Counted from the first letter of the stretch, positions 38,080 to 54,332 are shown. The stretch is DNA of 64,000 nucleotides from an uncultured Verrucomicrobia subdivision 3 bacterium (GCA_903842235.1 CAIMLG010000162.1:3115-67114), one strand, 5' to 3'. The notes: a model not told the origin generated them from the sequence alone. Made by a program: numbers and translations.

Positions 38080-40650
38080 TTATAGGTCGCGGGCTATCCG
38101 CAGGTGAATTCCACCGGGCGGAAACTGTTCCTCGGTCTCCGGATCGCGAATCTGGAGCTGCAACAAGTCGCCCGTTTTGAAAACGTGCTTGGAATCAAAA
38201 AATAGAGTCAGGGCCACCTCGACCCCGCCCGGCTCCAGTTTCACGGTCTTCCGTTTGCCACTGAGCACGGAACTCCCGTCGCCGGCTCGCAACACTTCCA
38301 GTTGCAATTCGCGCGGCTGGTCGGCAAACAGCGCCAGTTCGCCCGCCGGCGCGGCCCCTCCCGTTTTGGGGCGCAACACCAACTTGACCGCCGCTTGCGT
38401 CAGTTCGTAGCTCGGCAATAACACCTCCACGCCAATCTTGCGCACCTGGATCCGTCCGCGCGATACCAGTCGGGGAATAATCATTTCCTGCAGCGTCCCG
38501 CCGCCGTGGCTAAAGGCTTTTTCGGTCTTGAAAAAGGCCGTGCCGGGTGGGATCGCCACCCGCACCGAGGCATCCCATAAAAACGGTTTGGTCTTGAGCG
38601 GCACGTCTGCTGCCGCCGGCACCAGGGCAAAGCGCTCTTTGAACGCCGCGCACCACTCTTTTTTGATCGGCACTTCCGGCGGCAATTGCGCGGCATCCAC
38701 CAGCACAAACCCATGGTCGGTCACGACATTCACTTCGGCATAGCCCCACTGATGCAGTCGCTTTACCACGCGGACAATCCGGTCCAGTTCCTTGTCCAGA
38801 TGGCGGACCAATGCCTCGGCATTCGCATGCCCCAGCTTGTCCACTTCCTCATGCCCGAACACCACCAGCAGGTTGGGAATTTTATCCGGGGCCGCCGCCG
38901 CTGCTTCCACTTCGTCAATGTCCAGGCACGTCGCGCCAAAATCCTTCAATAAATCCAGCCGGTTCTGCCGGACACTCGTATCCACGCCATTCACCTGCGG
39001 ATGCAAAACATTTTTCTCGATGATCAGGCTCGTCGGGGTGAGGGCTTTGGGCAGGAGTGCGCTCATGCCGATCGGGGTGACCGTCGGCAGCATGGCTCGC
39101 ATCGGTTCCACCCGCACCTCTTGACCGGGCAGTCGGTCTACGAGAGCCAGGGCGCAATCATACCGCAGTGCATCCACGATAATCACGGCTCGCCGTCCGC
39201 CCGCCGACCACACCTTCGCCTCCAGTTGATCCGTCACCAGCGGAAAACCCGCGAGCTCCAGATTGTCGTTGGCGGTGTAGGCGTCAAAAAAACGCTGGTT
39301 CAAATCATTGGCGTAATCGCCATAGCCGCGATCCACTACGGTCACCACCTCGGGCACGTCATGTTCTTCCGCCGTGGCCTTGAGTTGGGCGTGGGCTCGG
39401 TCAATCGTTCCCGCAAACTCGCAATACACCTTCGCCAGCTCGCTCGCCGACGGCGCGTTTTCCACCGCTTTCCGGCCTTGCTCGCACGTGTCCACAAAAC
39501 CCGCCACTCCCAGCAACATTTCCCAATGGCCGGTCGGTGCCTGGCTGGCCCGTCCGAAATCCACTTCCTCGCGCAGCGCCGACTCTTCGATTTTTACCAA
39601 CTTCCGGAGGTCCGACCACTTTTCCGCCGCCGCGGCAAAGCGCTCGCGGAAACGGCTCCAGCGCAGCCGGGCCAGATGCGGAAACCCGAACGACAGCCCC
39701 GTCCGTCCGCGCGCCCAATCGGTCAGGTTGAGATGTTGCTCCACCGATTTTATCCAGCGATCCCACGCGGGCCGGCTGTTGGCGTCCCGCAGCCAGCGGC
39801 GCAGCAGTTGCACCTGGCCTTCGCGGAAGCGCGGCGGCGGCAGCCGGTTCAAAAATGGAAAATCCGCCGGCTCGCCATAGCCGTTATATGTTTCCGTCAG
39901 CGCCAGCACCTCGACCAGCGCGGTGACCCATAACTCCGGGCTGTCGGTTTCGCTGGCAAAATCGTAGCGATCTTTGACGGCGGCCAAAAATTCTTCCCGC
40001 ACGCCGCGTTCGCCGAGCGCCTTCCACGTCGCCTCCGGCTGCACCGCCAGATCCAAAATCATCTGGTCCACGTCGCCCACCAGCCGCGATTGCGCCAGCT
40101 CCGGCGTCAGTCGCTGCTCCCAAAACACCGGCGGCTTGTCGTGAAACTTACCCGCATATTTGGCCAGCAAACTATCGCTACCACCGTCCACGAGCTGCCG
40201 TTGGTCGCCCGGCGTTTCTGGCAGGCACACCCCGGCCGTCTTCAAAAAGTTGAACAGCGTCGCCAGCTTGCCGCCCACCAGCCAGCGCACGCCGGCAATT
40301 TTATATTCCGTCAGCAGTTCCAGATAATGGCGGCCTGCGTCATCGGGCGAATCCAGCCGTTCCACGGCCAACGGCAGGTAGATCAAAAAGCGAACCTCCT
40401 TCGCTTTCTCCGCCGGTAATCCTTTCAAGGCCTGGCGCACTTGTCGGCGCAACCAGAGTTGACCACGCTTCAGCTTCGGCTCATAAGCCAGCAATTGAAA
40501 CGGCGGCTTCTTCATCTGTTCCAGATGCTTCGCCAGCGCCGGGCGCAACCGTTCAAACTCACCCTTTGGATCAAACCACAGGCAAACCTTCGCCCGCTTC
40601 TCGTGCGAGAATCGTTGCTGGATTTGCTGGATGAGCGCCGGCAGTATCAT
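38080..40650 (-). CDS. pglZ: BREX alkaline-phosphatase-fold protein PglZ
   Basis: The start is set at ATG 40650 (MILPALIQQIQQRFSHEKRAKVCLWFDPKGEFERL, a typical PglZ N-terminus). That ATG overlaps the upstream gene's stop as ATGA. PglZ domain blocks are AVIIVDALRYDCALAL, VVFGHEEVDKLGH and VVTDHGFVL. Confidence 0.9.
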   Translation of the reverse strand: MILPALIQQIQQRFSHEKRAKVCLWFDPKGEFERLRPALAKHLEQMKKPPFQLLAYEPKLKRGQLWLRRQVRQALKGLPAEKAKEVRFLIYLPLAVERLDSPDDAGRHYLELLTEYKIAGVRWLVGGKLATLFNFLKTAGVCLPETPGDQRQLVDGGSDSLLAKYAGKFHDKPPVFWEQRLTPELAQSRLVGDVDQMILDLAVQPEATWKALGERGVREEFLAAVKDRYDFASETDSPELWVTALVEVLALTETYNGYGEPADFPFLNRLPPPRFREGQVQLLRRWLRDANSRPAWDRWIKSVEQHLNLTDWARGRTGLSFGFPHLARLRWSRFRERFAAAAEKWSDLRKLVKIEESALREEVDFGRASQAPTGHWEMLLGVAGFVDTCEQGRKAVENAPSASELAKVYCEFAGTIDRAHAQLKATAEEHDVPEVVTVVDRGYGDYANDLNQRFFDAYTANDNLELAGFPLVTDQLEAKVWSAGGRRAVIIVDALRYDCALALVDRLPGQEVRVEPMRAMLPTVTPIGMSALLPKALTPTSLIIEKNVLHPQVNGVDTSVRQNRLDLLKDFGATCLDIDEVEAAAAAPDKIPNLLVVFGHEEVDKLGHANAEALVRHLDKELDRIVRVVKRLHQWGYAEVNVVTDHGFVLVDAAQLPPEVPIKKEWCAAFKERFALVPAAADVPLKTKPFLWDASVRVAIPPGTAFFKTEKAFSHGGGTLQEMIIPRLVSRGRIQVRKIGVEVLLPSYELTQAAVKLVLRPKTGGAAPAGELALFADQPRELQLEVLRAGDGSSVLSGKRKTVKLEPGGVEVALTLFFDSKHVFKTGDLLQLQIRDPETEEQFPPGGIHLRIARDL

Positions 40651-41093
40651 GGCGTGTTTTTCGGTTCGCTGGTCCCGGACGTTGGCAGCGGGGCCAAAGA
40701 CCCGCTGATGCCTCGCCACACGATCTCGCTCCGCAGGCTGTTGATCAATTGGGCGCGCAAGCTGGGGACCTTTGATTTCTTCTGCATCGGTATTCCTAGC
40801 ACTTTTCCAATCTCCAAAATGACTTGGCTGCCGAGGAAACCCACTTCCTTTTCCAGCGCGCTTTCGTTCGTCGCCAACGACTTGAGCCGTTCCAGATAGG
40901 CGCCATCCACGGCAATCACCGGTTTGGGAATTTTCGGCACTTTCGGCCAGGGACTCGTAAGGCTGACCCGCACGCGCGCGCCGCGTTGCGTCATCCGTTC
41001 CAACTCGGCGGGTGAATAAAGTTTCTCCAACCAACTGCGAACACTCTCGGGTGCCGGTTCTCCGGCTTTCAAAATAAATTCTTTAGTTGCCAT
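40647..41093 (-). CDS. hypothetical 148-aa protein coupled to the ParA-like ATPase and pglZ
   Basis: Its ATG lies inside the last codons of the ParA-like gene (11-nt overlap). Its stop overlaps the pglZ ATG (ATGA). No motif was recognised. Confidence 0.55.
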   Translation of the reverse strand: MATKEFILKAGEPAPESVRSWLEKLYSPAELERMTQRGARVRVSLTSPWPKVPKIPKPVIAVDGAYLERLKSLATNESALEKEVGFLGSQVILEIGKVLGIPMQKKSKVPSLRAQLINSLRSEIVWRGISGSLAPLPTSGTSEPKNTP

Positions 41094-42072
41094 TGTAGCG
41101 GGTGATTCGGTCGATAACGACGTTGCGGATGGCGGTCATGCACGCATCCACGGTGGGTTGACCGGATTTTTTAACATTGAACTCAGTGATGGCGCTCTTG
41201 TCTTCGCCCAGAAACCGCGCGATGACATCCAGCCGGGGGATTTCGCCCACGAGCGCCTTGTCCCCGAGCACGGCTCGTTCGTCGGCTTGCAGGGTGCTCA
41301 TCACCCCCTTGATGAGATCAAAATGAGCGCGTTGTTGGCTCCCCACCATTCCTCCGCCGGCGCGGTTGAGTGCATTGAGCACATAGCCCAGCAGCTTGGG
41401 CCGGTCCGACGGCGGATCAATCTGGCAGACCCAGCGGATCAGTCGCGGCATTCCATAAATCGAAATCTGGTCGGGAATTGTCACCGGCAGATAGAACGAG
41501 CACGCCCGCAGCATTGCCTGTGTGAGAAACATCTTGTTCGGCGGGCAGTCCACCAGCACATATTCATATTCTTCCTCAAACGACAGGAGGAGCTGTTTGA
41601 TGTAGAGAAACAATTCCGTCAGATACCGTTTCTCATCTTTCAACAGCGTCTTGGCGATTAGGTAATCCAGTTCGTCGGTGTTGAACGAGCCGGGAATGAT
41701 TTCCAGATTCTTGGGCAGGTGGATGGACTTGAGCGCCTGCGTGTAGTTCTCCAGTTTCTTCTGCTTCAACTTCGTCCAAGCCTTGGGCTCCACCAGGTTG
41801 TAAACAGTCAGTTCCGTGTTGCTGACCTTTTCCGGGTCAAAGCCCATCGCCAGCGAAAGACTGCATTGCGCGTCAATGTCGAACAGCAGCACCTTCTTCT
41901 TCGACAGCTTCGCCAGATAAATGCCCAGGAGCGCGGTCGTGGTCGTTTTGCCCACGCCGCCCTTGTAGTTGATGATGCAGATCGAGCGCGGATGCTTTGG
42001 ATGCACAATCTCCGTCGCACCCGACCGATCCAGTTTATCCGCCAATGTGTTCAATGCTGGTATTGCACTCAT
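41083..42072 (-). CDS. ParA/Soj/MinD-family P-loop ATPase
   Basis: Deviant Walker A INYKGGVGKTTTTA, Walker A'-like LLFDIDAQCS, Walker B YVLVDCPP. Confidence 0.8.
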   Translation of the reverse strand: MSAIPALNTLADKLDRSGATEIVHPKHPRSICIINYKGGVGKTTTTALLGIYLAKLSKKKVLLFDIDAQCSLSLAMGFDPEKVSNTELTVYNLVEPKAWTKLKQKKLENYTQALKSIHLPKNLEIIPGSFNTDELDYLIAKTLLKDEKRYLTELFLYIKQLLLSFEEEYEYVLVDCPPNKMFLTQAMLRACSFYLPVTIPDQISIYGMPRLIRWVCQIDPPSDRPKLLGYVLNALNRAGGGMVGSQQRAHFDLIKGVMSTLQADERAVLGDKALVGEIPRLDVIARFLGEDKSAITEFNVKKSGQPTVDACMTAIRNVVIDRITRYNGN

Positions 42073-42094
42073 ATTTTTAGCCCAATCGTCGTTT

Positions 42095-42919
42095 CTAAAG
42101 AATTAGATTGTTAAGCCAGTCAGCCACCGTTTTCACCTTTCCCGCAGCTAAATTACCTGGCTCGATCCACCGGTTATCATTTACCGACATTTGTGAAGTC
42201 CTGCCCGGTTTTAGGATTGCGGCTGCAGAGGCGATCGTTGCTTTCTTCTTTCCGGACACGGATTTAAATTCATCATGATCTTCATTTGTCCAAGTGGCGG
42301 TCGGGGGTATTAGGTTTTTTGCAGCCGCATCAACATGTGCTATCGCCAGCCCCAAAAGTTTCGGGTAAGAAGTGTGGCCGCACTCCAGCAATAGGTCTTC
42401 CAAAGTCCCTTGGCTCGCATTATCTGGAAAAACAAAAACTCCGCGTCGATTTTTGGCCGGCCCAACAGGTTGCACGACTACACCCGGCGCGTTCGGGAAT
42501 GCCCCCAATAAGTGTGGTGCGTCTTTGGCTAATGTCGCCGCTAAGTCCGTGGCGCGTTTGGCTGGCGTCTCGTTGGAATCAGAGTCAAGAATGAGCCCAA
42601 TGGCATCGGGTTCTCCAACGCCCGGCATCGCCAGCGTCTCTTCCAGGCGGGCAACGATTTTTGAGATACCGCCGGCGCTTTGGACCGCAACAGTGTGTGT
42701 GTCGTTCTGGTAGAAGATCGGCATCGAGATGCGCCCCAGAAAATCATTGGGGGGCTTGCCAACTGGATAGCTATTTGGAATTAAGGGGTGCCAAAACGAA
42801 TCCACTTTGCTTTTCGCATTCTGGTAGTGAAAAGCATGTGGCCCCTGGCGCAGGATTCGCCCGATAAACTCCACGTCATGCGGCCCTTCAACGACAATAT
42901 AGGTGGTGCGGCGTGCCAT
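42095..42919 (-). CDS. Toprim-like (OLD/DUF4435/DUF3226-class) protein, AriB-like partner of the adjacent ATPase
   Basis: N-terminal YIVVEGPHDVEFIGRIL (VEGxxD) and AIGLILDSDS (DxD). It lies 3 nt downstream of an ABC-type ATPase gene. Confidence 0.55.
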   Translation of the reverse strand: MARRTTYIVVEGPHDVEFIGRILRQGPHAFHYQNAKSKVDSFWHPLIPNSYPVGKPPNDFLGRISMPIFYQNDTHTVAVQSAGGISKIVARLEETLAMPGVGEPDAIGLILDSDSNETPAKRATDLAATLAKDAPHLLGAFPNAPGVVVQPVGPAKNRRGVFVFPDNASQGTLEDLLLECGHTSYPKLLGLAIAHVDAAAKNLIPPTATWTNEDHDEFKSVSGKKKATIASAAAILKPGRTSQMSVNDNRWIEPGNLAAGKVKTVADWLNNLIL

Positions 42920-42922
42920 AGA

Positions 42923-44041
42923 TTAGCGGATGTCGAGACCTCGTTCGAAGCGAAGCCGTTCCCAGAGGTCGCCACTGTAGCGCTGCACTTTTCGGGTGCC
43001 CTTATTCACGGATAAATGGTAGCCAACAAAATCGTTATTATGCTCAGGCATTGCTTTGAGCACCGCATCTACCGTATCCAGGCTGTGCGTCGTCGCCACG
43101 ATTTGCACGTTCAGATCCGTGCATAGATGCATCAGGGCACGAAAGAAGTCTTCTTGGGCTTTTACATGCAGCGCGGTTTCCGCCTCATCTATGATCAGCA
43201 CACCACCCTCCGCTCGCAGCGCATGTTCGATGACAAAAAAAGCTTTTCTGACGCCATCACCGTAGCTATGCAGCGGCATCGACCCTAGCACGCGGTGCAC
43301 GACGACAATGATGGAGCCACTTCGTCCTTCGGCGATTTCCACCCCGGTGATATCCGGATCGAAATTTTGCAGCACTTCGATTAGTAGCTTCTTGCGCTTC
43401 TGTAAGACGGCGTCCGTCAGAGAACCAAGCGAATAAGCGCTTAGCCGGTGCGCGTGAGGTTTTACAAATTCAACCGGATAATTACGAATGTGTTGAATGT
43501 CGTCGTTCATCACTGGCGGTTCAAAACTGTCGCTGAAGTCTGGGAACAGCATTGTTCCAGACTTATTTCCTTCAGCCTGAGAAGTCCATTCGGCTAGCAG
43601 CACCACGTTTTTTCGTCCCTTAAAATCCACATGCGCGTCGGCACCCTCTTCTTCCTCCAACTGGGTCATACGCGGCTCCGGTATGGTCATCGCCGCTTCA
43701 CGGAGGTAATGGAGGCGCAGAACTTCATTGGTTCCGCTTGTGACGCCCTCTAGAATGACATCTTGGCGGAGACTTGGAGTTATCCGTCCCACCACTGGAA
43801 ATAACCAGCTTACCGCCTCACCGAGTTTGCTATCCGCCCTATCAATGTCTCGGACATTTAAAACTTTAAGCCATTGCTCCACGTCGCCGGGGCGAAGGAA
43901 CAACATGATCGCCTCCAGAACCGAGGTCTTGCCCGAGTTGTTTTCACCCACGAGCAGGTTAAATCGCCCCATGTTTTCCAAGTTGGCATCTTTTAATCCG
44001 CGAAAACTTCGGATGTGTAAGGATTCAATCAGTGGTTTCAT
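42923..44041 (-). CDS. ABC-type AAA_15/AAA_21-like ATPase (AriA/OLD-ATPase-like)
   Basis: IESLHIRSFRGLKDANLENMGRFNLLVGENNSGKTSVLEAI (Walker A), VLIIDEAETALH (Walker B), IVATTHSLD (H-loop). Confidence 0.8.
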   Translation of the reverse strand: MKPLIESLHIRSFRGLKDANLENMGRFNLLVGENNSGKTSVLEAIMLFLRPGDVEQWLKVLNVRDIDRADSKLGEAVSWLFPVVGRITPSLRQDVILEGVTSGTNEVLRLHYLREAAMTIPEPRMTQLEEEEGADAHVDFKGRKNVVLLAEWTSQAEGNKSGTMLFPDFSDSFEPPVMNDDIQHIRNYPVEFVKPHAHRLSAYSLGSLTDAVLQKRKKLLIEVLQNFDPDITGVEIAEGRSGSIIVVVHRVLGSMPLHSYGDGVRKAFFVIEHALRAEGGVLIIDEAETALHVKAQEDFFRALMHLCTDLNVQIVATTHSLDTVDAVLKAMPEHNNDFVGYHLSVNKGTRKVQRYSGDLWERLRFERGLDIR

Positions 44042-45972
44042 TCATCCTCCAGATCTTTGGCGCCAAATTTGTTTTTAATCCGCAGCAGCCCCGTCCGCGT
44101 CAGCGGCGCAATGTTTACCTTCACGCCGTCATCAATGTCCGGCTGCCAACCCTTCGGCCGGTCCTGCGGTTTTTTCCACGGCGTCAGGATGCGGTAATCG
44201 GCATCGCCACTCTCTGGGCCGGTGTGATGTCCCTCCTGTAGCTTGGCTAACTTTTTATCGAAAGCTTCCACCTCTTCCAATGCGGCCAGTAATTGCAAGC
44301 GGTCATCCTCGCGGTTGTCCTTGCCGGCTTGCGCGGCCTCGCGGCGTAGCGTCGTCATCCGGTCCCGCACATGCACGCTGCGCAATTTTGCCAGCAGATC
44401 ATGATCAAACCGATGGTATTGCACGATGACCGAGAACGCGGGGTCGGCGGAATCCTGGCTGCTCGCGAGATGCCAGAGGATCGGTCGCTGCTGATACAGG
44501 TCACAGTGAAAGTCAAAGAATCGATCCGTCAGCCATTCCTGCAGGGACTCCGCTCGGGCATAACCCTTCACGCGCTTTTTGAGTTCGTTGACGATTTCGA
44601 TCTCCAGCGTGTGCGGGTCTTGCTCGGGAAAAAAGCTGGCCAGCTTCGCACGCACTCGTTCGAGCAAGGGCAACTCCTGCGCTACGGATTGGAGCGAAAC
44701 TAAGCCGTCGTTATCTTCCTCCACCACACATTTGACCGCGTAAGAGAGTAGCCGGCACACATGTTCCAGTCGCTTCTGCTCTGCGCTTTGGCCTTCCATC
44801 TGCGGCCAAACACATTCAAGCGGCCAACCCCTCAAATGCGTCAAGATTGACTCGCGCTGAGATTGCGATAATCCAAATAGCCCGGCTACCGCTAAATCGA
44901 TCTGTTCAAATAGAACCTTTAGCTGAAGTGTAAATCGGTCCTCGCACTCGATTAAGCGCCCAAGCCTTATTTGAAGGGGACCAGCATCAGTATAACGAGC
45001 GGCTAGCAACCACGGCTTTTGAAAATTAGTCGATACTTCATTTCCGGAATTCCAACCACTTTTGATTTCGTATGCTTGCTTGGCAAAGTCTGAGATGGCG
45101 TTGCGAGCCTTCGCCACAGCTGGCGGAATAGGAAATTGTCCAACGTAGTTCGACCCGTAATTCCGGCCACTTAGCGCACGCGCTGTGTATGCTATAGCAG
45201 AGGAGTTTAGAACCCCTAGCAGGAAGAAGCGGTCATTTTCATGAACTGGAAAGGCAGCTGGTCCAGCAACATTGAAAATTGCACCTTCTTCCAAGATTCG
45301 AACGCTAAATCCCAAACTGCTTTTTTCAGTCCAAGTTAGACCAGGACGGAAGTAAAATTCTGGTGATTTGATGAAACGGCTCTCGCTTCCATACCTTTCC
45401 TTAACGAGGGCTTTGAGCTCAGCGCCATCAGCCGTCCAATCAAGCACAAGTTCAAGATCGGAGTAAAAGCGGCTGAAGTCTCCGCCTTTGCAATATTTAA
45501 CCCACCTACGTCTAGTTGAAATCGATGGCTCCCAAAAACACCTTACAAACCTAGACGACTCAGTCGAATTCATCCCACCTCTTACATGTGCGTAGTTAGG
45601 ATCGATCGACACGCCGACCTTAAACAGCGTGCCCAATATTTGCATTTCAGCGTAAGCTAGTGTAGACGCATCAAGGAGGCTGAAGTCTCGGATGGTTACA
45701 TCAAAACGTGTTCGGCTCGATTCACCTTTCAATATTTCAACAAAGACATGATGTCTATTATCTCCCGTATCAGTATGTCCGAACCGTTCCAAATCAAGAA
45801 ATGCCGCACGCTCACCTTCTGTAACCACATAGTAAGAATTCTCGGCCTGTGCTTCGGAGACTTCAATATCCTCCCGCGCCTGTGTAACGCGGGTGCTCTC
45901 GACAATTAGCCGTCGCCGGAGATCCGGCTTCGATAATAGCTTCTTGATATCGTAACGTTTGAGAGTGGCCAT
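44038..45972 (-). CDS. pglX: C-terminal (specificity/C-domain) portion of BREX methyltransferase PglX as a separate ORF
   Basis: RWVKYCKGGDFSRFYSDLELVLDWTADGAELK, FYFRPGLTWTEKSSLGFSVRIL, LLGVLNSS and GQFPIPP correspond to the region that follows the MTase domain in single-chain PglX. The 5' ~1 kb of the ORF is visibly AT-richer. Confidence 0.7.
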   Translation of the reverse strand: MATLKRYDIKKLLSKPDLRRRLIVESTRVTQAREDIEVSEAQAENSYYVVTEGERAAFLDLERFGHTDTGDNRHHVFVEILKGESSRTRFDVTIRDFSLLDASTLAYAEMQILGTLFKVGVSIDPNYAHVRGGMNSTESSRFVRCFWEPSISTRRRWVKYCKGGDFSRFYSDLELVLDWTADGAELKALVKERYGSESRFIKSPEFYFRPGLTWTEKSSLGFSVRILEEGAIFNVAGPAAFPVHENDRFFLLGVLNSSAIAYTARALSGRNYGSNYVGQFPIPPAVAKARNAISDFAKQAYEIKSGWNSGNEVSTNFQKPWLLAARYTDAGPLQIRLGRLIECEDRFTLQLKVLFEQIDLAVAGLFGLSQSQRESILTHLRGWPLECVWPQMEGQSAEQKRLEHVCRLLSYAVKCVVEEDNDGLVSLQSVAQELPLLERVRAKLASFFPEQDPHTLEIEIVNELKKRVKGYARAESLQEWLTDRFFDFHCDLYQQRPILWHLASSQDSADPAFSVIVQYHRFDHDLLAKLRSVHVRDRMTTLRREAAQAGKDNREDDRLQLLAALEEVEAFDKKLAKLQEGHHTGPESGDADYRILTPWKKPQDRPKGWQPDIDDGVKVNIAPLTRTGLLRIKNKFGAKDLEDE

Positions 45973-45975
45973 GGT

Positions 45976-46857
45976 TTACTTCTCCTCCGCCAACCGCGCT
46001 TCAAAGTTTTTCTGCGCCTCGCCTTCCCATTCAATAACCAAGTCGCCTAATGGCTGATGATTCCCCATCTCGCGAGCTTGTTCACAGGCGGCATAATAGC
46101 GGTCGCGGTCGCGCGTGCGGTTATAGGTGTCCAGCGGCACTAATCCGTTCTGCAATAAAATGAGATCGCTCAGCACAAACGCGCTCCGTCCATTGCCTTC
46201 GCGGAAAGGATGGATCGCCAGATATTCGCCCATGAACTTGGCGGCGAACCGGCAGACCGCCTCCGCATCGTCATTGATGAAGGGGGTTAGGGACAACACA
46301 TCTCGCTCGAACTCTTTAAAAACTGGTTCCCAGCCATAAACCGGCATAGGCCATTTCGTCGGCCCATCGCCCTTGTGCAAGTTCACGGTTCGCCATTCCC
46401 CCGCCCACGGGTAGATTTCCGCAAACATCTCGCGGTGAACTTGGCGGATGAGGTCCAAGGTGATGGGCACGGGTTCTTCCCGCGTGGCCAGGTCCGCTAT
46501 AAACTCCTTCGCACGATTCACCCCATTGGTTTCGCGGGACTTGATTTCCTCCGGGCTTAAGCACCCGGCCCAATTCAAACACAATTCGTGGTTCATGGCG
46601 GTGATGACCTGGAAATCCTTATCGGCGTAATTATTCCATGGGTTGACCACCACTGTCGGTGCCGTGGGCGCTTTGGCCTGTTTGGCCAGTTCTTCCAGTT
46701 GTGCCTTCGTCAACTTCCGTTGTGACGCCGGCACATGATAAAACTCTCCCGCTAGGATGGCCTGGTAGTAGTCCGCCGCTTGCTTGCCTTTGCCTTGCTG
46801 GAAACGGAATCCAAAATCCCGTTCGGCCCAGCGCCAGGCGATGCGTTTGGTGTTCAT
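45976..46857 (-). CDS. Fic/DOC family protein
   Basis: Fic core motif IHPFREGNGRSAFVL. The ORF is intact at 293 aa and embedded between the two pglX ORFs. Confidence 0.85.
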   Translation of the reverse strand: MNTKRIAWRWAERDFGFRFQQGKGKQAADYYQAILAGEFYHVPASQRKLTKAQLEELAKQAKAPTAPTVVVNPWNNYADKDFQVITAMNHELCLNWAGCLSPEEIKSRETNGVNRAKEFIADLATREEPVPITLDLIRQVHREMFAEIYPWAGEWRTVNLHKGDGPTKWPMPVYGWEPVFKEFERDVLSLTPFINDDAEAVCRFAAKFMGEYLAIHPFREGNGRSAFVLSDLILLQNGLVPLDTYNRTRDRDRYYAACEQAREMGNHQPLGDLVIEWEGEAQKNFEARLAEEK

Positions 46858-48956
46858 GGCGCGTTCCCCCTTAACACGATGGCCGCCGCTTCGACGGTGG
46901 CTCCGTCCAGAATGCCAAATCCCAGATCCAACATGATCACCAGCGGATTGCGTTTCAGTAATATCTCCGTTCGCAGTTTTTCATGCGAGACATTCGTCTT
47001 AAACGTGGAACTCACCAGCGCCCCCACATAGCCTTCCGGTTCGATCAGTTGCGTGGCGCGTTCGATGAATGCTGCGTAGATGTCGGACTTGGTCATCGGA
47101 TACGTCTCATCAATGAACTCTTTTACTTCCGGCACAAACGCCCCGTAGGGCGGATTCATCACCACCACGTCGAAAGCCAGGCTCAACACTTCCAGCAATT
47201 TCAGGCCGCGCACCGTGTCTTCGGCAAATAATCGTTGGCGCGGATCGGTCTGGAGTCGCCCGGCCAGTTGGTCCAATCCCAGCAAAAGTTCCGCCCGGAT
47301 GCGGCTCGCTTCGCTTTCCAAAAGCTCCCGCTCCAGCTCCATCTGCTGCACCCGTTCCTTACGCGCCGCGACGTCAATGACGCCTAGATCCATCTGCGGC
47401 GAGGTTTTTGTTTTGATCAGCTTGGTCAGATCTTTCGCCTTGGCTTGCGCTTCTACCCATTCGTCTAACACCCGCGCCACGCCTTCGCCAACTTGCACCA
47501 AGCTGCCCAGTTCACCCACATTTTTTAGATTCAACCACAGGGTCTGGAACAGTTTTTCCCGCAAATCGGCCGCGCCGGATTTATCGCCCACCTGCTGGAT
47601 GAGTTCGCGCAATTGGCCTTCATCCAGCTTGACCGCATTGGCAATCACTAGATTGGACCGTCGGATGCGCACTTCCGTGGGTGGGAAGCCCGCGCGTAGC
47701 GCCGCTTCTTTTGCCGTCAGCATCAGCGAGAGCGAGGCGATTTGGATGGCGCGCGGGTCAATATCAATGCCGTAAAGATTGTTTTCGATGATGGCCGCCG
47801 GAATCTCCTGTGGATTCTTCACCGAGGGTTCCGCCGGCCAGCCCGGTTTCCCCGCGTTCGCGATTTCGTCCAGATACATCTGGTAGAACAAGCCAAAGGC
47901 GTATTGCCCAAAGTGCAGCGTTCCGCACGCCGGATCGAGCAGCTTGATGTCCCGCGCCAGCTTGAACGGCTGGGGATTCCCATACTCGTCAATCCGCCGG
48001 TAACGGATTTTCTCCCCCGTCCGTGGCACCAGGTAATCGGCCACCGGCGGTAAATCCGCCGGGCGCTCTTGCGGCAACGGCGGTGGCCCTTTGCTGGCCA
48101 GCGAGGAATCCGGGTGCATCTGTAGCCACAGCCGCCCCAGCGTATTATCCACCAACACCTTCACCACCCACAGCGGCGTGTAAAACTGGTTGATGACGGA
48201 AAGTTCGTAGGAACTGCGCGGCGTGCCCTTGTTCTCCGCCCGCACCCGGTCCTTCTCATACACGTTGAAAAATTGATAGACCCAACCCAGAAAATCCGCC
48301 GCACGAAATGCCGCAATCGGCAAATCGCTGTTGATGCTCTGGATGGCGCCCTGCAATGCGGCGAAACTCGGCCACAGGCACGCGTAGTCATTGTCGGGAT
48401 CAAACAGCGTGCGGATTTCTTCATTCACCTCGCGGAACGCCGCCATCAGTCCGTCGCGTAGCAGAGACTGTTCGGCGCCAGCGTCGTATTTGTAACGCGA
48501 GCCGCCGGCGGCCCGAAAATCGCGAAGAAAGCGCGAATAAGCCTGGCCCTCCACCGGGGTCAGCACTTCCGTGGCTTCCGGCGCGGCCTCTGGATTTCCC
48601 GGCGGGCGCAGATACAGCAGCCCGCGCGCTTCCATCGCCTTGAGTCCCACCAGTCGGTTGAGCAGCGTATAAGTATGCTCGCGCTTTACCGCGTCAAAAC
48701 CGCGTTGCGGTGTGCCTTCCCCCGCCGTGTCGCGCTCCATCAGCGCCGCCAGCTTTCGGTGGATCAGCAGGTCAGCCGCCGGCAGTGCCAATTTCGCTTC
48801 TTCGGTATGCCGGCCATCCCGCCGGAATCCCAACCGCTTGAGCTGGTCTTCAAAGTCATCTTCTATCAGCCCGCGCAGGCGTGGCACCCATGCTTTGACC
48901 GCCTCCTTATGGGGATCAGATAACACCGCATTCGTCATGGGGGCAAGGTCGTTCAT
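46854..48956 (-). CDS. pglX: N-terminal N6-adenine methyltransferase portion of BREX PglX as a separate ORF
   Basis: LLDPACGTLHFGQYAF (SAM-binding motif I) and VVMNPPYG (motif IV). It stops ~90 aa after NPPY. It lies directly downstream of brxC with a 4-nt overlap. Confidence 0.85.
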   Translation of the reverse strand: MNDLAPMTNAVLSDPHKEAVKAWVPRLRGLIEDDFEDQLKRLGFRRDGRHTEEAKLALPAADLLIHRKLAALMERDTAGEGTPQRGFDAVKREHTYTLLNRLVGLKAMEARGLLYLRPPGNPEAAPEATEVLTPVEGQAYSRFLRDFRAAGGSRYKYDAGAEQSLLRDGLMAAFREVNEEIRTLFDPDNDYACLWPSFAALQGAIQSINSDLPIAAFRAADFLGWVYQFFNVYEKDRVRAENKGTPRSSYELSVINQFYTPLWVVKVLVDNTLGRLWLQMHPDSSLASKGPPPLPQERPADLPPVADYLVPRTGEKIRYRRIDEYGNPQPFKLARDIKLLDPACGTLHFGQYAFGLFYQMYLDEIANAGKPGWPAEPSVKNPQEIPAAIIENNLYGIDIDPRAIQIASLSLMLTAKEAALRAGFPPTEVRIRRSNLVIANAVKLDEGQLRELIQQVGDKSGAADLREKLFQTLWLNLKNVGELGSLVQVGEGVARVLDEWVEAQAKAKDLTKLIKTKTSPQMDLGVIDVAARKERVQQMELERELLESEASRIRAELLLGLDQLAGRLQTDPRQRLFAEDTVRGLKLLEVLSLAFDVVVMNPPYGAFVPEVKEFIDETYPMTKSDIYAAFIERATQLIEPEGYVGALVSSTFKTNVSHEKLRTEILLKRNPLVIMLDLGFGILDGATVEAAAIVLRGNAP

Positions 48957-51900
48957 TTGACTTGGATGGTGAACCCTTCCTTGATGCGCGCCTTTAGTTC
49001 TTTCGCAATTTCTTCCAGCGCGGCGTCCACTTCGGCATCACTGGCAAAGTGCAGTCCCGCCAGCGCGGCGGCGGCGTTCCAGGTATAAACCTTTTGGTCG
49101 GATTTGCGCGGCGGCGTTTTCAGTCCCCGCAATGCTCCTTCCACTTCCGCGCGGTAGGCGGGCAAGGCTTTCAACGACTGCCCCAGCGACGGCAGACTGG
49201 TTTTAGTGGCGGCAGTGATTAGCGCCGAGGTGCTGGTCAGTGTGATGTCCGGATAATGACAGGGTCCGCTCGTGCCAAACGTGGCGTTTACCACCGCGTC
49301 CCGTTGTTCCGCCGGAGCCGCAGCGTAAGCATTGCCGGCCCGGATGGCGGTCACCGTCTCCGTCACCGCCTTCTGCAAAGCCTGATAACTGCCGCGATAC
49401 GCGTCCCGATAGACCTCGTTGATTTTGTCCACGGCGGCGCGATAGTCATTCCAGCGGCCCACCACCGTCTTGTTCGCGATGATGGCTCCGAGGTCCGCCA
49501 GCGATTGATCCAACGCCGCTTTGTCCGGTGTGTCATTGGCCAGCGGATGGTTCTGAACCAGGGTCACCAGTTGCCGCGAGGTTTCAAAATCTTTGTGCCG
49601 GTTGGCCTCCAGAAAAGTCCGCAGCCCATCGAGTCCCGCTTTCAGCGCACGCCATTGGGCGGCCACCTTGAGAAAAGCCAGTGCGGATTTCGTCGGGTCT
49701 TTCAGCGTGGTCGGATTCTTCAGCGCTTCGTCGCACTTCAGGATTTCATCGCCCAGCGGCAGCCCGGCTTCCGCCCGCAGTTGGGCGTCGCGCGCACCTT
49801 CCTGCAATTTGGTGCCCAGTTGCCGGATCGCCCCGGCCAGCGCGTTGCCAGATTCCGGCGTGCCCGTCACGCCCATCGCAATGAGTTCCTTGCTCGCCTG
49901 TTTGATCTGCTCCAAAGTCAGATTGGATTCGGCCAGTCGGAACGTCGTTTTCTCAAACGTCTTGATCTTGACGAAATCATCCAGCGCCTCCTTGTAGTCA
50001 TAAAGCGGGGTCGGCCCGGCAGTGGTCTGCCGCTCCAGGTAAATCGCTCCTGCCCGGAAACACCCGGCCAGCACCAGCCGGACAATTTCTGACGGCCAAC
50101 CGAACGGCGCGCGGGCAAAACCCTTGAATCCTTTGCTGTCCCCTGAATCCAGCAACGCTTCGCCGGTGGGGTTCGTGCCTTCGTCTTCCAAATCTTTGAT
50201 GACTTCCAACGTCGTGGCCACCAGCGCCGATTCCTTGTTCAGGCTGCCTTGCGTGTCGAATAGATAAAGCTCAGGGGCCACTGTATGCAGGGCCGTTTGC
50301 GCCGGATTGAGCACGGCCTTGATTTGCTTCGCAAAATCCACCGGCTTGTCGGCCAGGGCAAAGCGCGGATAGATGTTGGGGATTTGCTGGCTCAGCGCCG
50401 ACTGGATTTCGCCCGCCATGTCTTTCGCGGTTTCCAGATCCACCACCTTGCCACCGTAATAAAGTGTCCCTTGGAGAAACGCCGATTTCAGGTCGCCGGC
50501 CAGCGTGCGCGCCAAATCGTCGCGTTCCTTGCGTTTTTCCGAAAGTGCATCCGCCGTGTCCTTCGAGGGATCATCCGTGAACCGTTTATCACTCGTGATG
50601 TTCAACAGCGATTGATAACGCTTGAGGCGCAACTCCAGCTTTTCTGGGACGCTCGCCACCCACCACGCTTTCCGCCCGTTCGGCCCGGCGGATTGATTCT
50701 GGCTCTTGATTTCCTCCACGGTTGTCTTGCGCCCCGGCGCCAGCGGCCCCACAAACGCCACTTCTAACTCCGGCCCGGTGTCCACGGCTTCGCCGTCCAG
50801 ATAAACCCCATAGCTGAAGGGTGTCTTAGTCGCCCCGTGGGTCACGGCATAATTATTCAGATTTTTCCGCGCGATGACGCTGGCTTTGGTGATCTCCAAG
50901 GATTGCTGCCGGATCGTGGTCTGCGTGATGGAGCGGGAGGTCCCCGGCCGGATCATTTCCTGGATGGCCTGCTCGATGGTGCGTTCGCGCTCATTCAAGT
51001 ATTTCCATTCACCGCTGGTCTCGTCACACGCCACATAACCCGCCTCCTGCAAAGCGATCAGGGTTTCGTCCACTTGCTGCCGGAGGGTCGGCAGATTTTC
51101 ATCCAGCCGGCTGACGAGCAGCTTCGCCAGGTTCTCCGCCGTGCGCGGCACAAAAGTCACGCGCTGGATCAGGTAAAGAACTTTCAAAACCCGGTCGGCG
51201 GGCATAGGCGTCGGTTTGGTCAGGCGTTTGGTGGATTCGTAAATCGCGCGCACCCCGGAGGCGCCCAGATATTCTTGTGACAACAGGTCATTTTCCAGGG
51301 CGTCAAACACTTGGTCAAAGCTCGCAATCGTCCCCACTTCCTGGGCTCCGAGCTTCTGCAATGCCTCCATCACCACCGAGATCATGGACCGCACGCCACC
51401 TGAGATACGGAAACCCGACAGTGCTTCGCCAATGTCCTGCGCCAGTTGAATCTCGTGCGGCAGGAACGGGTAAGCTTCAATAAAGCCTTTCTCCGACAGC
51501 AATCCCAGGCTGCGGCTGGCTTTCAAATCCGAGAGCTGCGCCAAAAACCCTTCATCTTCCAGATAGACTTTCTTCAGCTCTCCCTCGCACGCCGGATGTT
51601 TTTTCAGAATGCGCTCACAGACAACTTTATTGATGCCGTCCGAAATCAAGTGCGGCTTCAATTCAAACCGGGCGTTGAGCCGACCCACCAGCGCCGGTTG
51701 AAAGTTGGTCCGGTCCACCACTTTTTCCAGATCCTGTTGGCTGGTCGCGATGAGCCAGACTTTGCCTTTGCCTTTGTTGCCGATCATTTCGGCCAGGCTG
51801 TTCAGCTCGCCAATTTTGTCGTTCGAATCCCCGATGAAGGTTCCCATCTCGTCAATGACGAAGACCAGATGCTGGACGCGGCCGCCGGTCGGCTTCTGGT

Positions 51901-52693
51901 CGTTGACCCAGGCCACCAGTTCATCGGCGATTCCTTCCGCCGTGATCTTGGTATGGGCGAAGGCGTCATCCATGCCCGTCAGCGCTTCGTCTTCCGTCGG
52001 AAAACTTTTCGGGTCAACCTCGGGCAGCACTTTGGCCAGACGACGGCGCACGGTGGCCAGATCGTCCCGGCCTGGCTCGCTTGCCCATGGCACCCCAAAT
52101 CGTTTTTCAAACGCTTGCGCCAGCTTCTCCAGCAGGCCGCGGCGGGCCAGTCGGCGCTCGAGTTGGGCGATGATGAAATTCTCCGAATAGCCGATGCTGC
52201 GGTAAAACTCGCCCAGCAGAATTTCCCCGACCGAGTTCGGGTTGTTGAGGCTCTGCCGGCTCCGGATTTCAAACGCCACCATCTTGGTGGTCGTCAGCTT
52301 CTTCACCTCGCCGAGCCGCAACCGGATGTCCCGGCCTTTGGGCGAATCAGACAGGTGTTTCTCAAAAACATCAATGCACGAATCGCTGGAACCGTCCTGC
52401 AGCATTTCATTCTGCAACAGGTAGCCCAGGACTTTGGCAAAATGTGATTTGCCCGAACCAAAAAACCCGGATACCCAGATGCCCATCACATCGCGCGCCT
52501 TGCCGCCATGGCGCAACGTCTCGCTCACTTGGGTGAACGTATCAAGGATGCGTTTCAGTTCCTCCTCGATCTTGTCCGTTACGACGTATTCGCGAATTTC
52601 TGCAGCCAGTGCCGAGCGGTCATAAACTTTCACGACCCCTTCGACTTTCACCGCAATGTCCCTTTGGATCAGGTCTTTGATTTTAGTAGCCAT
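48953..52693 (-). CDS. brxC: BREX P-loop ATPase BrxC/PglY
   Basis: 1246 aa with WVSGFFGSGKSHFAKVLGYLL (Walker A) and LVFVIDEMG (Walker B). Its position follows brxB. Confidence 0.9.
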   Translation of the reverse strand: MATKIKDLIQRDIAVKVEGVVKVYDRSALAAEIREYVVTDKIEEELKRILDTFTQVSETLRHGGKARDVMGIWVSGFFGSGKSHFAKVLGYLLQNEMLQDGSSDSCIDVFEKHLSDSPKGRDIRLRLGEVKKLTTTKMVAFEIRSRQSLNNPNSVGEILLGEFYRSIGYSENFIIAQLERRLARRGLLEKLAQAFEKRFGVPWASEPGRDDLATVRRRLAKVLPEVDPKSFPTEDEALTGMDDAFAHTKITAEGIADELVAWVNDQKPTGGRVQHLVFVIDEMGTFIGDSNDKIGELNSLAEMIGNKGKGKVWLIATSQQDLEKVVDRTNFQPALVGRLNARFELKPHLISDGINKVVCERILKKHPACEGELKKVYLEDEGFLAQLSDLKASRSLGLLSEKGFIEAYPFLPHEIQLAQDIGEALSGFRISGGVRSMISVVMEALQKLGAQEVGTIASFDQVFDALENDLLSQEYLGASGVRAIYESTKRLTKPTPMPADRVLKVLYLIQRVTFVPRTAENLAKLLVSRLDENLPTLRQQVDETLIALQEAGYVACDETSGEWKYLNERERTIEQAIQEMIRPGTSRSITQTTIRQQSLEITKASVIARKNLNNYAVTHGATKTPFSYGVYLDGEAVDTGPELEVAFVGPLAPGRKTTVEEIKSQNQSAGPNGRKAWWVASVPEKLELRLKRYQSLLNITSDKRFTDDPSKDTADALSEKRKERDDLARTLAGDLKSAFLQGTLYYGGKVVDLETAKDMAGEIQSALSQQIPNIYPRFALADKPVDFAKQIKAVLNPAQTALHTVAPELYLFDTQGSLNKESALVATTLEVIKDLEDEGTNPTGEALLDSGDSKGFKGFARAPFGWPSEIVRLVLAGCFRAGAIYLERQTTAGPTPLYDYKEALDDFVKIKTFEKTTFRLAESNLTLEQIKQASKELIAMGVTGTPESGNALAGAIRQLGTKLQEGARDAQLRAEAGLPLGDEILKCDEALKNPTTLKDPTKSALAFLKVAAQWRALKAGLDGLRTFLEANRHKDFETSRQLVTLVQNHPLANDTPDKAALDQSLADLGAIIANKTVVGRWNDYRAAVDKINEVYRDAYRGSYQALQKAVTETVTAIRAGNAYAAAPAEQRDAVVNATFGTSGPCHYPDITLTSTSALITAATKTSLPSLGQSLKALPAYRAEVEGALRGLKTPPRKSDQKVYTWNAAAALAGLHFASDAEVDAALEEIAKELKARIKEGFTIQVK

Positions 52694-52700: not shown

Positions 52701-53240
52701 TTAGTTCTTGATCGAGATTTTTACCGCCAGGTAGTTGCCTCCGTCTGGCTCGTTCATAAAATGCAGTTTGCCTCCGCGCTCTTCGCCGGGAAAGGCAATA
52801 AACATCCGGCACTTTAATTCGCGCAATTGCCGCAACACTTCGCCGAACCGCACCAGCGGAAACAGCGCCACGGTCGCCATCACGAACAGGTTGGTGCCGG
52901 GCGCTTTCTGGGAAACCTCTTGCAGCGACTTGCCCAATGCGGTCTCGGCGCGCTTGGACAGGCTCTGCATCATCAGCCGGTAATTGCGAAACTCATCCTG
53001 CTCCAGGTCGTCGAGCACTTCCTCACTGAAGCAGTCAAATAAAAACTGGCTCAGGTCGAGCACCTCATACGGCACGTCGGCGCTTTTCAAACCCGGCAGG
53101 CAGCGGTCGTAAATCATCTCCCGAAAGTCTAGTTCCTGCTCGGGCGGATAAATCAGGAGCAGCGAATTATCAATGACCACTGCGGCCTTGTCGAAAGGTT
53201 GGCTCGCGGCTGCCGTGATGGTTTTGAGGGCCTCATCCAT
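52701..53240 (-). CDS. brxB: BREX protein BrxB (DUF1788-like)
   Basis: 179 aa with the C-terminal block MFIAFPGEERGGKLHFMNE...NYLAVKI. It holds the canonical position between brxA and brxC. Confidence 0.7.
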   Translation of the reverse strand: MDEALKTITAAASQPFDKAAVVIDNSLLLIYPPEQELDFREMIYDRCLPGLKSADVPYEVLDLSQFLFDCFSEEVLDDLEQDEFRNYRLMMQSLSKRAETALGKSLQEVSQKAPGTNLFVMATVALFPLVRFGEVLRQLRELKCRMFIAFPGEERGGKLHFMNEPDGGNYLAVKISIKN

Positions 53241-53246: not shown

Positions 53247-54023
53247 TTAAATGCCAATTTCCACCACGTCCGCCTGCATTCGGAAGCGCAGTTCCTCTTC
53301 CCGGTTCAATTGCGACAACGCGTCAACGACTTCTTCCGGGGCAATGCCGAGGAGCTTGAATGACTCATGTCGCACCACCGCCAAAGGCGTCACTCGCCGC
53401 AGCCGCAGCGCCGCCAGCAGCAGCCGCACCGGACTGCCGTAAAGCGCCGGGCGCACCGCCAGCTTTTTGGTCGTCCCCGTGGCCAGGCCAAAATCCCGTA
53501 TGCTCGCCAGGTAATGTTGGGCGACCCGCGTCAAGGTGATGGGCGTCCACTCCACAATTTCAGGATGTTCGTTTTTCCCTTGTTGGCGCAGAAAACTTTC
53601 CAGGTCGCCCGTCCGCAACTCACACGGAGCGCGGCGCAACTGCGGGAACAACCATTCCTGGCTGGTGACCATGACCGTCCTGTCATTCAAAGCCAACATG
53701 ACATAAACCGTTAGCGCCCGCTCATGCTCGGAACGGCAGCGCCGCCACTGATCGTGAAAAGCCGAATAGAGGGGATTTTCGGAATTCAGCAGGTAACGGC
53801 CTTTGAGCTCTTGGTAGATTTTTTTTCGGGCCGCGACGGAACCGCGCGCCAGCGCATTGTCGTCCACCACGGCCTGGCGATATTCCGCCAACGACAACCG
53901 GCCCGGCTTGGCCTCCAACAGCACCTGTAAATCAGTGTAGAGCGCCGAGCGCGATGAAAGCCGCGCCAGGCAGGACGAAGCTTCGTCCAAACCCGTAATT
54001 GAATTGGGTAAAACGATATTCAT
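53247..54023 (-). CDS. brxA: BREX protein BrxA (DUF1819-like)
   Basis: 258 aa, helical, first gene of the canonical brxA-brxB-brxC order. The assignment is mainly by position and size. Confidence 0.6.
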   Translation of the reverse strand: MNIVLPNSITGLDEASSCLARLSSRSALYTDLQVLLEAKPGRLSLAEYRQAVVDDNALARGSVAARKKIYQELKGRYLLNSENPLYSAFHDQWRRCRSEHERALTVYVMLALNDRTVMVTSQEWLFPQLRRAPCELRTGDLESFLRQQGKNEHPEIVEWTPITLTRVAQHYLASIRDFGLATGTTKKLAVRPALYGSPVRLLLAALRLRRVTPLAVVRHESFKLLGIAPEEVVDALSQLNREEELRFRMQADVVEIGI

Positions 54024-54025: not shown

Positions 54026-54232
54026 CTACGCGTCGCCCTCGCTCTTATTGAGATTGGTTTGTGATGACCCACCCGATCGCACCCAGGCATCCACCTCGGC
54101 CGTTTGAAATTTCCACAGGCGCCCGACTTTATGCGCGGGCATGTTGCGCCGCTCAATCCACTTGTAAACCGTGTCGGGTTTAATGCCCAAGTGGGCGGCA
54201 ATTTCTTCAACGGATAGCCAGCGGGGTTCCAT
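54026..54232 (-). CDS. excisionase-family/MerR-like HTH DNA-binding protein
   Basis: From ATG 54232: MEPRWLSVEEIAAHLGIKPDTVYKWIERRNMPAHKVGRLWKFQTAEVDAWVRSGG, a textbook HTH_17 pattern. It ends 2 nt before brxA. Confidence 0.7.
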   Translation of the reverse strand: MEPRWLSVEEIAAHLGIKPDTVYKWIERRNMPAHKVGRLWKFQTAEVDAWVRSGGSSQTNLNKSEGDA

Positions 54233-54332
54233 TGCCCTCAGTTTAACCACCGGTCCAAAAGGTGTCCAGTTCATCCCAATAAAAACTGGAAAACTGCCCC
54301 TCAAATCGCCTCAACCAGGATCGTCTCATTTT

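Follow-up and report, generated by a model that had tools for sequence, protein, structure and literature searches.

A type 1 BREX locus in which pglX is divided into two genes with a fic gene between them

Introduction

The methyltransferase PglX of type 1 bacteriophage exclusion (BREX) systems is normally a single polypeptide of roughly 1200 amino acids (aa). Such systems are characterised by N6-adenine methylation at a non-palindromic 6-bp motif and by the exclusion of phage DNA that is unmethylated. In Escherichia coli this protein (BrxX) was mapped as an N-terminal domain (NTD, residues 1-210), a methyltransferase domain (MTD, 211-650), a domain for target recognition (TRD, 651-837) and a C-terminal domain (CTD, 838-1205), with hinge loops at 638-675 (PMC11842806), and in PglX of Salmonella the hinge lies at 654-659 and the CTD resembles Type I specificity subunits (PMC11341690). 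A split BREX-1 pglX is on record in Brevibacterium casei, where the gene is phase-variable and consists of two coding sequences (CDSs), with programmed inversions and a recombinase (PMC9881135). A 64,000 nucleotide (nt) stretch of DNA from an uncultured Verrucomicrobia subdivision 3 bacterium (GCA_903842235.1, CAIMLG010000162.1:3115-67114), here called the window, was found to carry a type 1 BREX locus in which pglX is divided into two genes, designated pglX-N and pglX-C, with a complete gene for a Fic-family enzyme between them.

A Fic/DOC gene between the core genes of a type I restriction-modification (R-M) system has been recorded before (PMC9881135), and one candidate Fic family, PDC-S04, came from a 'guilt-by-embedding' screen for genes embedded in BREX, DISARM (defence island system associated with restriction-modification) and type I R-M loci. 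A BREX pglX split by a fic gene was not described in the literature searched, including a 2026 survey of BREX in Nucleic Acids Research. BREX is widespread, and this locus may bear on how phage replication is blocked once PglX recognises unmethylated DNA.

Results

The divided pglX gene

The six BREX-1 core genes brxA, brxB, brxC, pglX, pglZ and brxL were all found on the minus strand at 36015-54023 in searches with Pfam, NCBIfam and PADLOC, and all six were full length. They form part of one co-oriented, tightly packed gene series that runs from 54304 to 36015 in the order of a helix-turn-helix (HTH) gene, brxA, brxB, brxC, pglX-N, fic, pglX-C, four cargo genes, pglZ and brxL, and by its gene content the locus is type 1 BREX. 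Within this series pglX-N (46854..48956) is predicted to encode a 700 aa protein with an N-terminal helical domain and a gamma-class N6-adenine MTD, fic (45976..46857) a 293 aa Fic-family enzyme, and pglX-C (44038..45972) a 644 aa protein with the TRD and the CTD, as deduced from alignment to BrxX, NCBIfam and Foldseek. An initial annotation of the window, made from the sequence alone, had placed open reading frames (ORFs) at these three positions and read them as a PglX divided into catalytic and C-terminal parts around a complete fic gene. All three ORFs are present there on the minus strand, the middle one matches the Fic family (Pfam PF02661, E 2e-13), and the two outer products are complementary when aligned to solved BrxX/PglX.

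PglX-N aligned to residues 6-612 of the solved proteins (8zek, 9ewz, 8c45; E 3e-36 to 3e-38), spans positions 2-613 of the 1210 in NCBIfam BREX_1_MTaseX and matches the whole of a 640-position PglX model in PADLOC. The sequences that had been read as methyltransferase motifs, LLDPACGTLHFGQYAF and VVMNPPYG, are both in this product, the latter placing NPPY at residues 601-604, and with motif I, motif IV and a match to Pfam Eco57I (E 2e-20) PglX-N has the features of a gamma-class N6-adenine methyltransferase (Eco57I/MmeI-like). Motif I is DPACGTL in PglX-N versus DPACGSG in BrxX, and its second glycine is replaced throughout the clade, fused relatives included. PglX-C aligned to BrxX residues 711-1118 (E 4e-22), which bears out its assignment to the C-terminal part of PglX, and covers BREX_1_MTaseX positions 631-985 and onward; the blocks expected downstream of the catalytic part, RWVKYCKGGDFSRFY, FYFRPGLTWTEKSS, LLGVLNSS and GQFPIPP, were located in it.

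The 644 aa of PglX-C comprise a family-specific head (residues 1 to about 55), a linker, a hypervariable TRD (about 100-360), spacer helices and a conserved CTD. The lower half of BrxX/PglX is matched by its AlphaFold2 model (predicted local distance difference test, pLDDT, 80.5) with a Foldseek E of 1e-21 and a template modelling score of 0.63-0.65 over about 600 columns. Residues 52-105 fall below a pLDDT of 50 when PglX-C is modelled alone, which would fit a segment that folds against a partner.

The cut in PglX lies about 25-40 residues ahead of the flexible hinge between MTD and TRD. Therefore, pglX-N corresponds to the 'upper jaw' of the enzyme (NTD and MTD) and pglX-C to the last linker elements together with the 'lower jaw'. 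On the fused PglX of 1219 aa in the most closely related single-chain locus (L054), PglX-N ends at residue 625 and residue ~60 of PglX-C falls at residue ~635, and as these two points are about 10 residues apart, nothing of the fused protein has been lost. The head of PglX-C, from residue 1 to about 55, is a gained segment that is strongly conserved in the family.

An origin of this head by duplication of the PglX-N tail, hinted at by BLAST and MAFFT, was rejected on a profile-profile probability of 0.25% and a column-permutation z of -0.36. A split intein with trans-splicing was likewise rejected: PglX-N ends at most 5 residues from the point where the fused relatives continue, no extension of intein size is present, and the PglX-C head is without the HN-C/S/T sequence. 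Phase variation was also discarded, there being no inverted repeats and no recombinase at the locus.

At the upstream junction the pglX-N stop and the fic start overlap by 4 nt, sharing the sequence ATGA. The fic stop is 3 nt from the start of pglX-C (TAA, then ACC, then ATG), and the pglX-C stop overlaps by 4 nt the start of the next ORF, an AAA_15 ATPase gene (42923-44041). A search of the locus for inverted repeats, insertion sequence (IS) elements and a recombinase found none, and the direct repeats seen were short and at chance level, in line with the initial annotation, which had reported no IS, repeats or recombinase. That annotation had also regarded the junctions as operonic and not as scars, a view which stood. 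Comparison across about 12 phyla showed that the split and fic are kept, with start and stop codons that overlap, and are not the artefact of a single assembly.

Recurrence and descent of the arrangement

A scan of one genome per species gave 286 relatives, and 80 loci (labelled L001 and so on) were fetched and examined; nearly all are in metagenome-assembled genomes. Stand-alone homologues of PglX-C of 615-677 aa and 43-96% identity form at least 200 clusters. In tblastn searches the order brxA-brxB-brxC-pglX-N-fic-pglX-C-(cargo)-pglZ-brxL was found in nearly all loci with a PglX-C at least 41% identical to that of the window. The database search for other divided pglX genes thus recovered the layout, with fic in the gap, in about 50 independent assemblies from about 12 phyla, namely Verrucomicrobiota, Acidobacteriota, Myxococcota, Gamma-, Beta- and Alphaproteobacteria, Gemmatimonadota, Actinomycetota, Spirochaetota, Desulfobacterota, Binatota and Schekmanbacteria. 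Many of the homologous PglX halves in public records carry only the name 'hypothetical protein'.

A fic orthologue is directly upstream of pglX-C in 50 of the 51 split-clade loci that have at least 400 nt of sequence upstream of that gene. Among the 43 loci in which all three genes are complete, the pglX-N stop and the fic start overlap by 4 nt in 34, and in 35 there is an overlap of 4-23 nt at the next junction, between the stop of fic and the start of pglX-C.

One explanation considered was that pglX has been disrupted or is decaying, or that the split is an artefact of assembly or of a frameshift, and that the system is inactive. In its favour, PglX normally consists of a single chain, neither half reaches the whole-protein cut-off of NCBIfam (345.8 and 215.3 bits versus 500), and frameshifts occur in a few related loci (L004, L019 and L057). 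The same split with intact ORFs was, however, found in about 50 independent assemblies, the ratio of non-synonymous to synonymous divergence (dN/dS) is well under 1 for all three genes, the remaining BREX genes are intact, and no IS elements, repeats or scars are present. Because the layout recurs in some 50 genomes of a dozen phyla, it is a variant of BREX, neither damaged nor wrongly assembled, and this explanation is effectively refuted.

In a simple neighbour-joining tree of PglX-N, built without support values, the loci with fic are monophyletic, the fused L054 (Myxococcota) is their sister, the fused L058 and L067 (Armatimonadota) branch next and canonical PglX is the outgroup. The arrangement has a single origin, from which it spread to other phyla. 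The closest single-chain PglX relatives, which have no fic, are at L054 28-3687, L058 8000-11680 and L067 7907-12460, and they bracket the origin of the split.

In pairwise comparisons the distances of Fic correlate at r 0.85 with those of PglX-N, at 0.84 with PglX-C, at 0.79 with BrxC and at 0.72 with BrxL, and the core BREX genes correlate with one another at 0.68-0.92, PglZ being set aside on account of ORF starts mis-called in several loci. For ten pairs the Nei-Gojobori method gave dN/dS values of 0.05-0.23 in fic, of 0.04-0.27 in pglX-N and of 0.10-0.37 in pglX-C. Fic is under purifying selection and has been kept in place while other inserts come and go.

A single locus of the clade, L047, has no fic, and it branches within the clade. 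Its pglX halves are in the same frame with a stop codon between them, and the spacer (9840-9960) encodes fragments of Fic (HKGDGPTKWP...AEWQE). At 11914-16930, DsbA-like and beta-lactamase-family genes are in place of pglZ and brxL. Judged by its sequence, L047 is a decayed locus.

Probable specificity exchange in pglX-C

Close pairs of loci (L005/L026, L009/L032 and L007/L053) were compared along PglX-C. In most windows of the alignment identity is 82-100% for the head (residues 1-40) and for the tail (about 360-640), and for the TRD region between them, residues ~60-360, it is mostly 20-50%. In the same pairs the synonymous divergence (dS) of pglX-C is above that of the neighbouring genes. 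The raised dS together with the mosaic TRD points to recombinational replacement of a specificity cassette. By this pattern, and by parallel with hsdS, pglX-C appears to behave as an exchangeable specificity gene, and a possible benefit of the split is that specificity can be swapped as a gene segment between conserved flanks.

The fic gene among variable cargo

Directly after pglX-C comes pglZ in 41 of 57 loci, and inserts of varied content separate the two in the other 16, of which 7 carry the AAA_15 and DUF3226 pair that is also present in the window. Extra genes were also seen on both sides of fic. Between pglX-N and fic these are a Schlafen/HATPase_c_4/Fic-like_C protein gene in L001 (7587-9119), AAA_15-DUF3696 and RNA ligase genes in L002 (6441-9086) and a PD-(D/E)XK_3 protein gene in L053 (8416-8841); between fic and pglX-C they are a gene for a 900 aa ParA-like protein in L008 (7102-9804) and another for a PD-(D/E)XK_3 protein in L055 (9380-9799). 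As extra genes occur there in several loci, both junctions are hotspots for variable cargo, and Fic is the constant occupant of otherwise variable junctions.

The insertion of other cargo at the same junctions speaks for another reading, in which Fic would be an autonomous embedded defence or toxin gene (PDC-S04-like or SoFic-like), inserted once into pglX and kept by tight linkage, with a split PglX that works without Fic and a Fic that works without BREX. The protein does match PDC-S04 (PADLOC, E 2e-34), a family whose defining genes were found inside BREX, DISARM and type I R-M systems; with model PDLC04839 (E 2.3e-34) the match extends over Fic residues 83-274 and positions 12-198 of 205, so that the first ~80 residues are outside the model. 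Independent systems embedded in BREX, such as BrxU and PARIS, are well documented. Moreover, relatives at ~30% identity share the N-terminal region of Fic, and the two whose contigs were examined (P0258 and P0263) are on contigs of only 1.5-2.8 kb with small unannotated neighbours and no BREX genes visible. Set against this are the retention of fic in 50 of 51 loci, even at a PglX-C identity of 41%, whereas other cargo is in the minority and varied; the conserved start-stop overlaps with both halves; distances that track those of the core genes; a BREX-linked family that forms a single compact cluster and has a derived change in the active site; and a sole loss that occurred in the decayed L047. 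An autonomous Fic is, on balance, unlikely.

The Fic protein

The 293 aa product has a beta-rich N-terminal region (residues ~18-87) and a Fic core (102-292) with the active-site motif HPFREGNGRSAF at 216-227. The Pfam PF02661 score of 51.3 bits is well above the cut-off of 24. In the AlphaFold2 model (pLDDT 79) the core is confidently predicted and the beta-rich N-terminal region moderately so. Best Foldseek matches of the model were FICD/HYPE (E 2e-8), Bartonella Bep and VbhT, all three with E about 1e-8, and an Enterococcus Fic, and a profile search of the PDB (E 6e-14) gave as best matches a 205 aa Fic (8wt0), VbhT and FICD.

Within a library of 1.84 billion representatives the Fic family is one full-length cluster at 50% identity plus fragments, and beyond it the score of full-length relatives falls sharply, from 481 to at most 114 bits. 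The N-terminal region, with the sequences WRWxExDFGFRF and NPWxxY, is common to some distant Fic proteins and hence predates capture by BREX.

Of 47 orthologues, 46 have the motif HPFREGNGR(T/S)AF, which keeps the catalytic histidine, the acidic residue, Asn-Gly and the first arginine. The full AMPylating motif HxFx(D/E)GNGRxxR is absent, since the last arginine is phenylalanine in the window (HPFREGNGRSAF) as in 46 of the 47 orthologues. Relatives at 27-40% identity have R or K at this position, so that the change to phenylalanine is derived in the BREX-linked clade. In the Fic family the second arginine of the motif contacts the gamma-phosphate of ATP and also forms a pair with the inhibitory glutamate, and Fic members without it, such as Doc and AnkX, perform chemistry other than AMPylation. 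The change from GNGRxxR to GNGRxxF suggests, as a lead, that nucleotide binding or regulation may be unlike that of a classical AMPylating Fic. A region corresponding to the beta-hairpin flap (at residues 160-172, with HKGDGPTKWP) is conserved in the orthologues, which would fit a protein substrate.

Candidate inhibitory motifs were examined, and none gave good evidence of an inhibitory helix in cis or on a partner protein. The sequence RREDEG at Fic residues 107-112, taken as an inhibitory helix in cis, is without S/T and aligns to the helix of FICD that follows the inhibitory one. A C-terminal EWEG was dismissed because EWE(x) is not conserved as E-G/N. An antitoxin-like motif in the PglX-C head failed as well, since QAEN of the window is QAER in most orthologues and the S/T is not conserved.

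These sequences bear on whether Fic is the toxin of an addiction module, which would keep the BREX island stable by post-segregational killing, with one PglX half as the antidote. VbhT and FicT, class I Fic toxins of toxin-antitoxin pairs, are among the closest solved relatives, and with no separate antitoxin ORF a neighbouring protein would have to neutralise Fic. Yet an inhibitory motif was recognised neither in the PglX-C head nor elsewhere, and the one locus that lacks fic (L047) has also lost pglZ and brxL without obvious compensation. Addiction is very improbable, even if on sequence data alone it is hard to separate from a guard function of Fic.

The resemblance to FICD, the best structural match and a regulatory enzyme that both adds and removes AMP, raises another possibility, in which Fic is a regulatory subunit that modifies PglX-C, BrxC, PglZ or a host factor and so switches the system between host methylation and phage exclusion. 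Its catalytic residues are conserved, it is translated together with the reader of the methylation state, and a multi-subunit BrxBCXZ complex is required in BREX for methylation as well as for defence (PMC11842806). BREX with a fused PglX, including that of the sister locus L054, works without Fic, however, which means that no such switch is generally required, and a regulatory role of this kind seems decidedly unlikely.

Other genes of the locus and the window

Directly upstream of brxA, a small protein of the excisionase type is encoded at 54026..54304 (Pfam HTH_17, E 2e-15). Its homologue precedes brxA in many related loci (at ~1600-1900 in L005, L010, L011, L018 and others), and it is probably a dedicated regulator of this locus and of the related BREX clade. 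It is followed by brxA (53247..54023; Pfam BrxA, E 1.5e-11), brxB (52701..53240; Pfam BrxB, E 3.8e-6, 27.4 bits versus a cut-off of 26.8) and brxC (48953..52693), which encodes a full-length P-loop ATPase of 1246 aa (NCBIfam BREX_BrxC, 603.9 bits versus a cut-off of 400).

Downstream of pglX-C the facultative cargo begins with an AAA_15/AAA_21 ATPase gene (42923..44041; PADLOC PDC-M38A, AbiLi-like), of which a homologue follows pglX-C in 8 related loci, and a DUF3226 protein gene (42095..42919; Pfam DUF3226, E 4e-19; PADLOC PDC-M38B). Next are a facultative gene for a ParA/MinD-like ATPase of 329 aa (41083..42072; Pfam AAA_31, E 6e-27) and a 148 aa ORF with no family match (40647..41093), which overlaps the ParA-like gene at its stop by 11 nt and pglZ at its probable start by 7 nt; these two may form a second two-gene cargo module.

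The mechanically called pglZ ORF (38080-41034, 984 aa, with a TTG start at 41034) is over-extended. In tblastn comparisons of related loci PglZ homologues align only from residue ~125-129, and codon 128 is the methionine that starts MILPALIQQ; the pglZ start is for these reasons most likely at 40653, giving a protein of 857 aa (38080..40653; Pfam PglZ, E 6e-15). In NCBIfam this PglZ stays under the cut-off of the type A as well as of the type B model of BREX-1 PglZ (191.7 bits versus 400 for type B). The last gene, brxL (36015..38069), encodes a Lon-like protease/ATPase with BrxL_N, BrxL_ATPase (Pfam, E 8.5e-136) and Lon_C domains. All of these genes are on the minus strand. Scans of the locus with Pfam, NCBIfam and PADLOC gave no match to HsdR or HsdS families, and promoter-like and terminator-like sites were not commoner in the window than in shuffled sequence.

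On the plus strand at 23585-28951 there is a Wadjet/Mks-like operon with a 408 aa ORF, MksE (JetB-like), a 906 aa DUF3584 SMC-like protein and a JetD_C/DUF7281 protein; with this operon also present, the window is a defence island. The following genes (28948-35833, plus strand) encode a 440 aa protein without family match, a 704 aa PLD-domain protein and a 1151 aa SNF2/ResIII helicase, overlap one another as in an operon and may be another defence system resembling a PLD and helicase module. Directly upstream of the BREX locus, the minus-strand region 54694-63948 holds a 1962 aa DEAD/Helicase_C/MZB protein (DUF1998-type, Zn-binding) and a 1119 aa ORF without Pfam match, a domain set that resembles DrmA/DrmB of DISARM.

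Discussion

The locus is probably a complete type 1 BREX system of a distinct and conserved subtype, in which PglX is made as two subunits and Fic is encoded between them, translationally coupled to both. We read pglX-N, fic and pglX-C as a fixed three-gene module and not as the product of decay or of a hitch-hiking gene. PglX-N and PglX-C would reassemble non-covalently into a PglX-like enzyme within a complex of the BrxBCXZ type, in an arrangement that resembles HsdM with HsdS and in which pglX-C would serve as the exchangeable specificity gene. Fic would be made in step with the two halves and could bind them as a stoichiometric partner.

As to what Fic does, the guard or effector role suggested in the initial annotation is a reasonable hypothesis, and our favoured guess, a tentative one, is a latent second-line effector that guards PglX after the pattern of PrrC and EcoprrI. 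The complex of PglX-N and PglX-C would hold Fic in check; a phage inhibitor that disturbs PglX, for example a DNA mimic of the Ocr type, would release it; and the released Fic would modify an essential protein of the host or the phage and make the infection abortive, in the manner of PrrC in EcoprrI.

Several points weigh against this picture. The loss of the second arginine of the motif could mean reduced or changed activity and not a toxin, and no (S/T)xxxE(G/N) inhibitory helix motif was recognisable in Fic or in the PglX-C head. PDC-S04, the nearest of the catalogued Fic families, showed no defence activity in the one native-host test found. A gene that is tightly linked and functionally independent would also yield co-inheritance and coupling, and the related loci, nearly all from metagenome-assembled genomes, include no cultured model.

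It is also conceivable, though rather doubtful, that Fic is an obligate enzymatic subunit whose activity is gated by the assembly or the DNA-binding state of PglX-N and PglX-C, the GNGRxxF site carrying out a nucleotide-dependent modification of a phage or host protein. If this were true, BREX would gain a defined catalytic effector or switch, and with it a tractable entry to how it stops phage replication.

In this locus a candidate catalytic activity is linked directly with the sensor protein, and a natural two-subunit PglX, cut at an inter-domain boundary, is available for studying assembly and specificity exchange. It also exposes an annotation problem, in that each PglX half is under the family cut-off. 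As PADLOC has half-length PglX models and the PDC-S04 Fic family, pipelines can label parts of the module.

Compared with canonical type 1 PglX (BrxX of E. coli HS, 8zek/9ewz, and PglX of Salmonella D23580, 8c45), the core genes and their order are the same, as is the domain series of NTD, gamma-class MTD with NPPY, TRD, spacer helices and CTD, and the halves align over essentially the whole solved length. The differences are that the chain is cut before the hinge of MTD and TRD, with a head of ~55 residues on the C-terminal half, that motif I is DPACGTL and not DPACGSG, and that an enzyme gene lies between the halves. The split pglX of B. casei is cut after the variable region, so that one CDS covers the N-terminus and the middle and the second CDS the C-terminus, whereas here the cut is before the TRD, inverted repeats and recombinase are absent, and fic fills the gap.

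With type I R-M systems such as EcoprrI-PrrC the locus shares separate methyltransferase and specificity genes, a TRD gene that is mosaic between close relatives and a potentially toxic enzyme gene inside the operon in the same orientation. The likeness to these systems proposed in the initial annotation holds at the level of structure, given the resemblance of the PglX CTD to specificity subunits, the swapping of the TRD and the documented embedding of a Fic/DOC gene. It is organisational only: there is no HsdR or other restriction nuclease, the embedded enzyme is a Fic and not an ABC-ATPase anticodon nuclease, PglX-C is not HsdS and has one TRD with a large BREX-specific CTD, and the embedded gene is fixed across the whole clade.

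Among Fic/Fido enzymes (FICD/HYPE, VbhT/FicT, NmFic, Doc and AnkX) the protein described here has in common the Fic fold, the histidine, the acidic residue, Asn-Gly, the first arginine and the flap, and it differs in the phenylalanine in place of the last arginine, in the want of a recognised (S/T)xxxE(G/N) helix and in the extra beta-rich N-terminal ~100 residues. Lastly, like the genes known to be embedded in BREX (BrxU in pEFER, PARIS in Salmonella D23580 and the PDC candidates), fic is from a defence-associated family and is co-oriented inside the operon; it matches PDC-S04, and a PDC-M38-like pair is present in the window as ordinary cargo. The known embedded genes are, however, facultative and lie between core genes, whereas fic lies inside a core gene, which it splits, and is coupled to both halves, in 50 of 51 loci. 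An embedded gene can, on this reading, turn from facultative cargo into a core component of the system.

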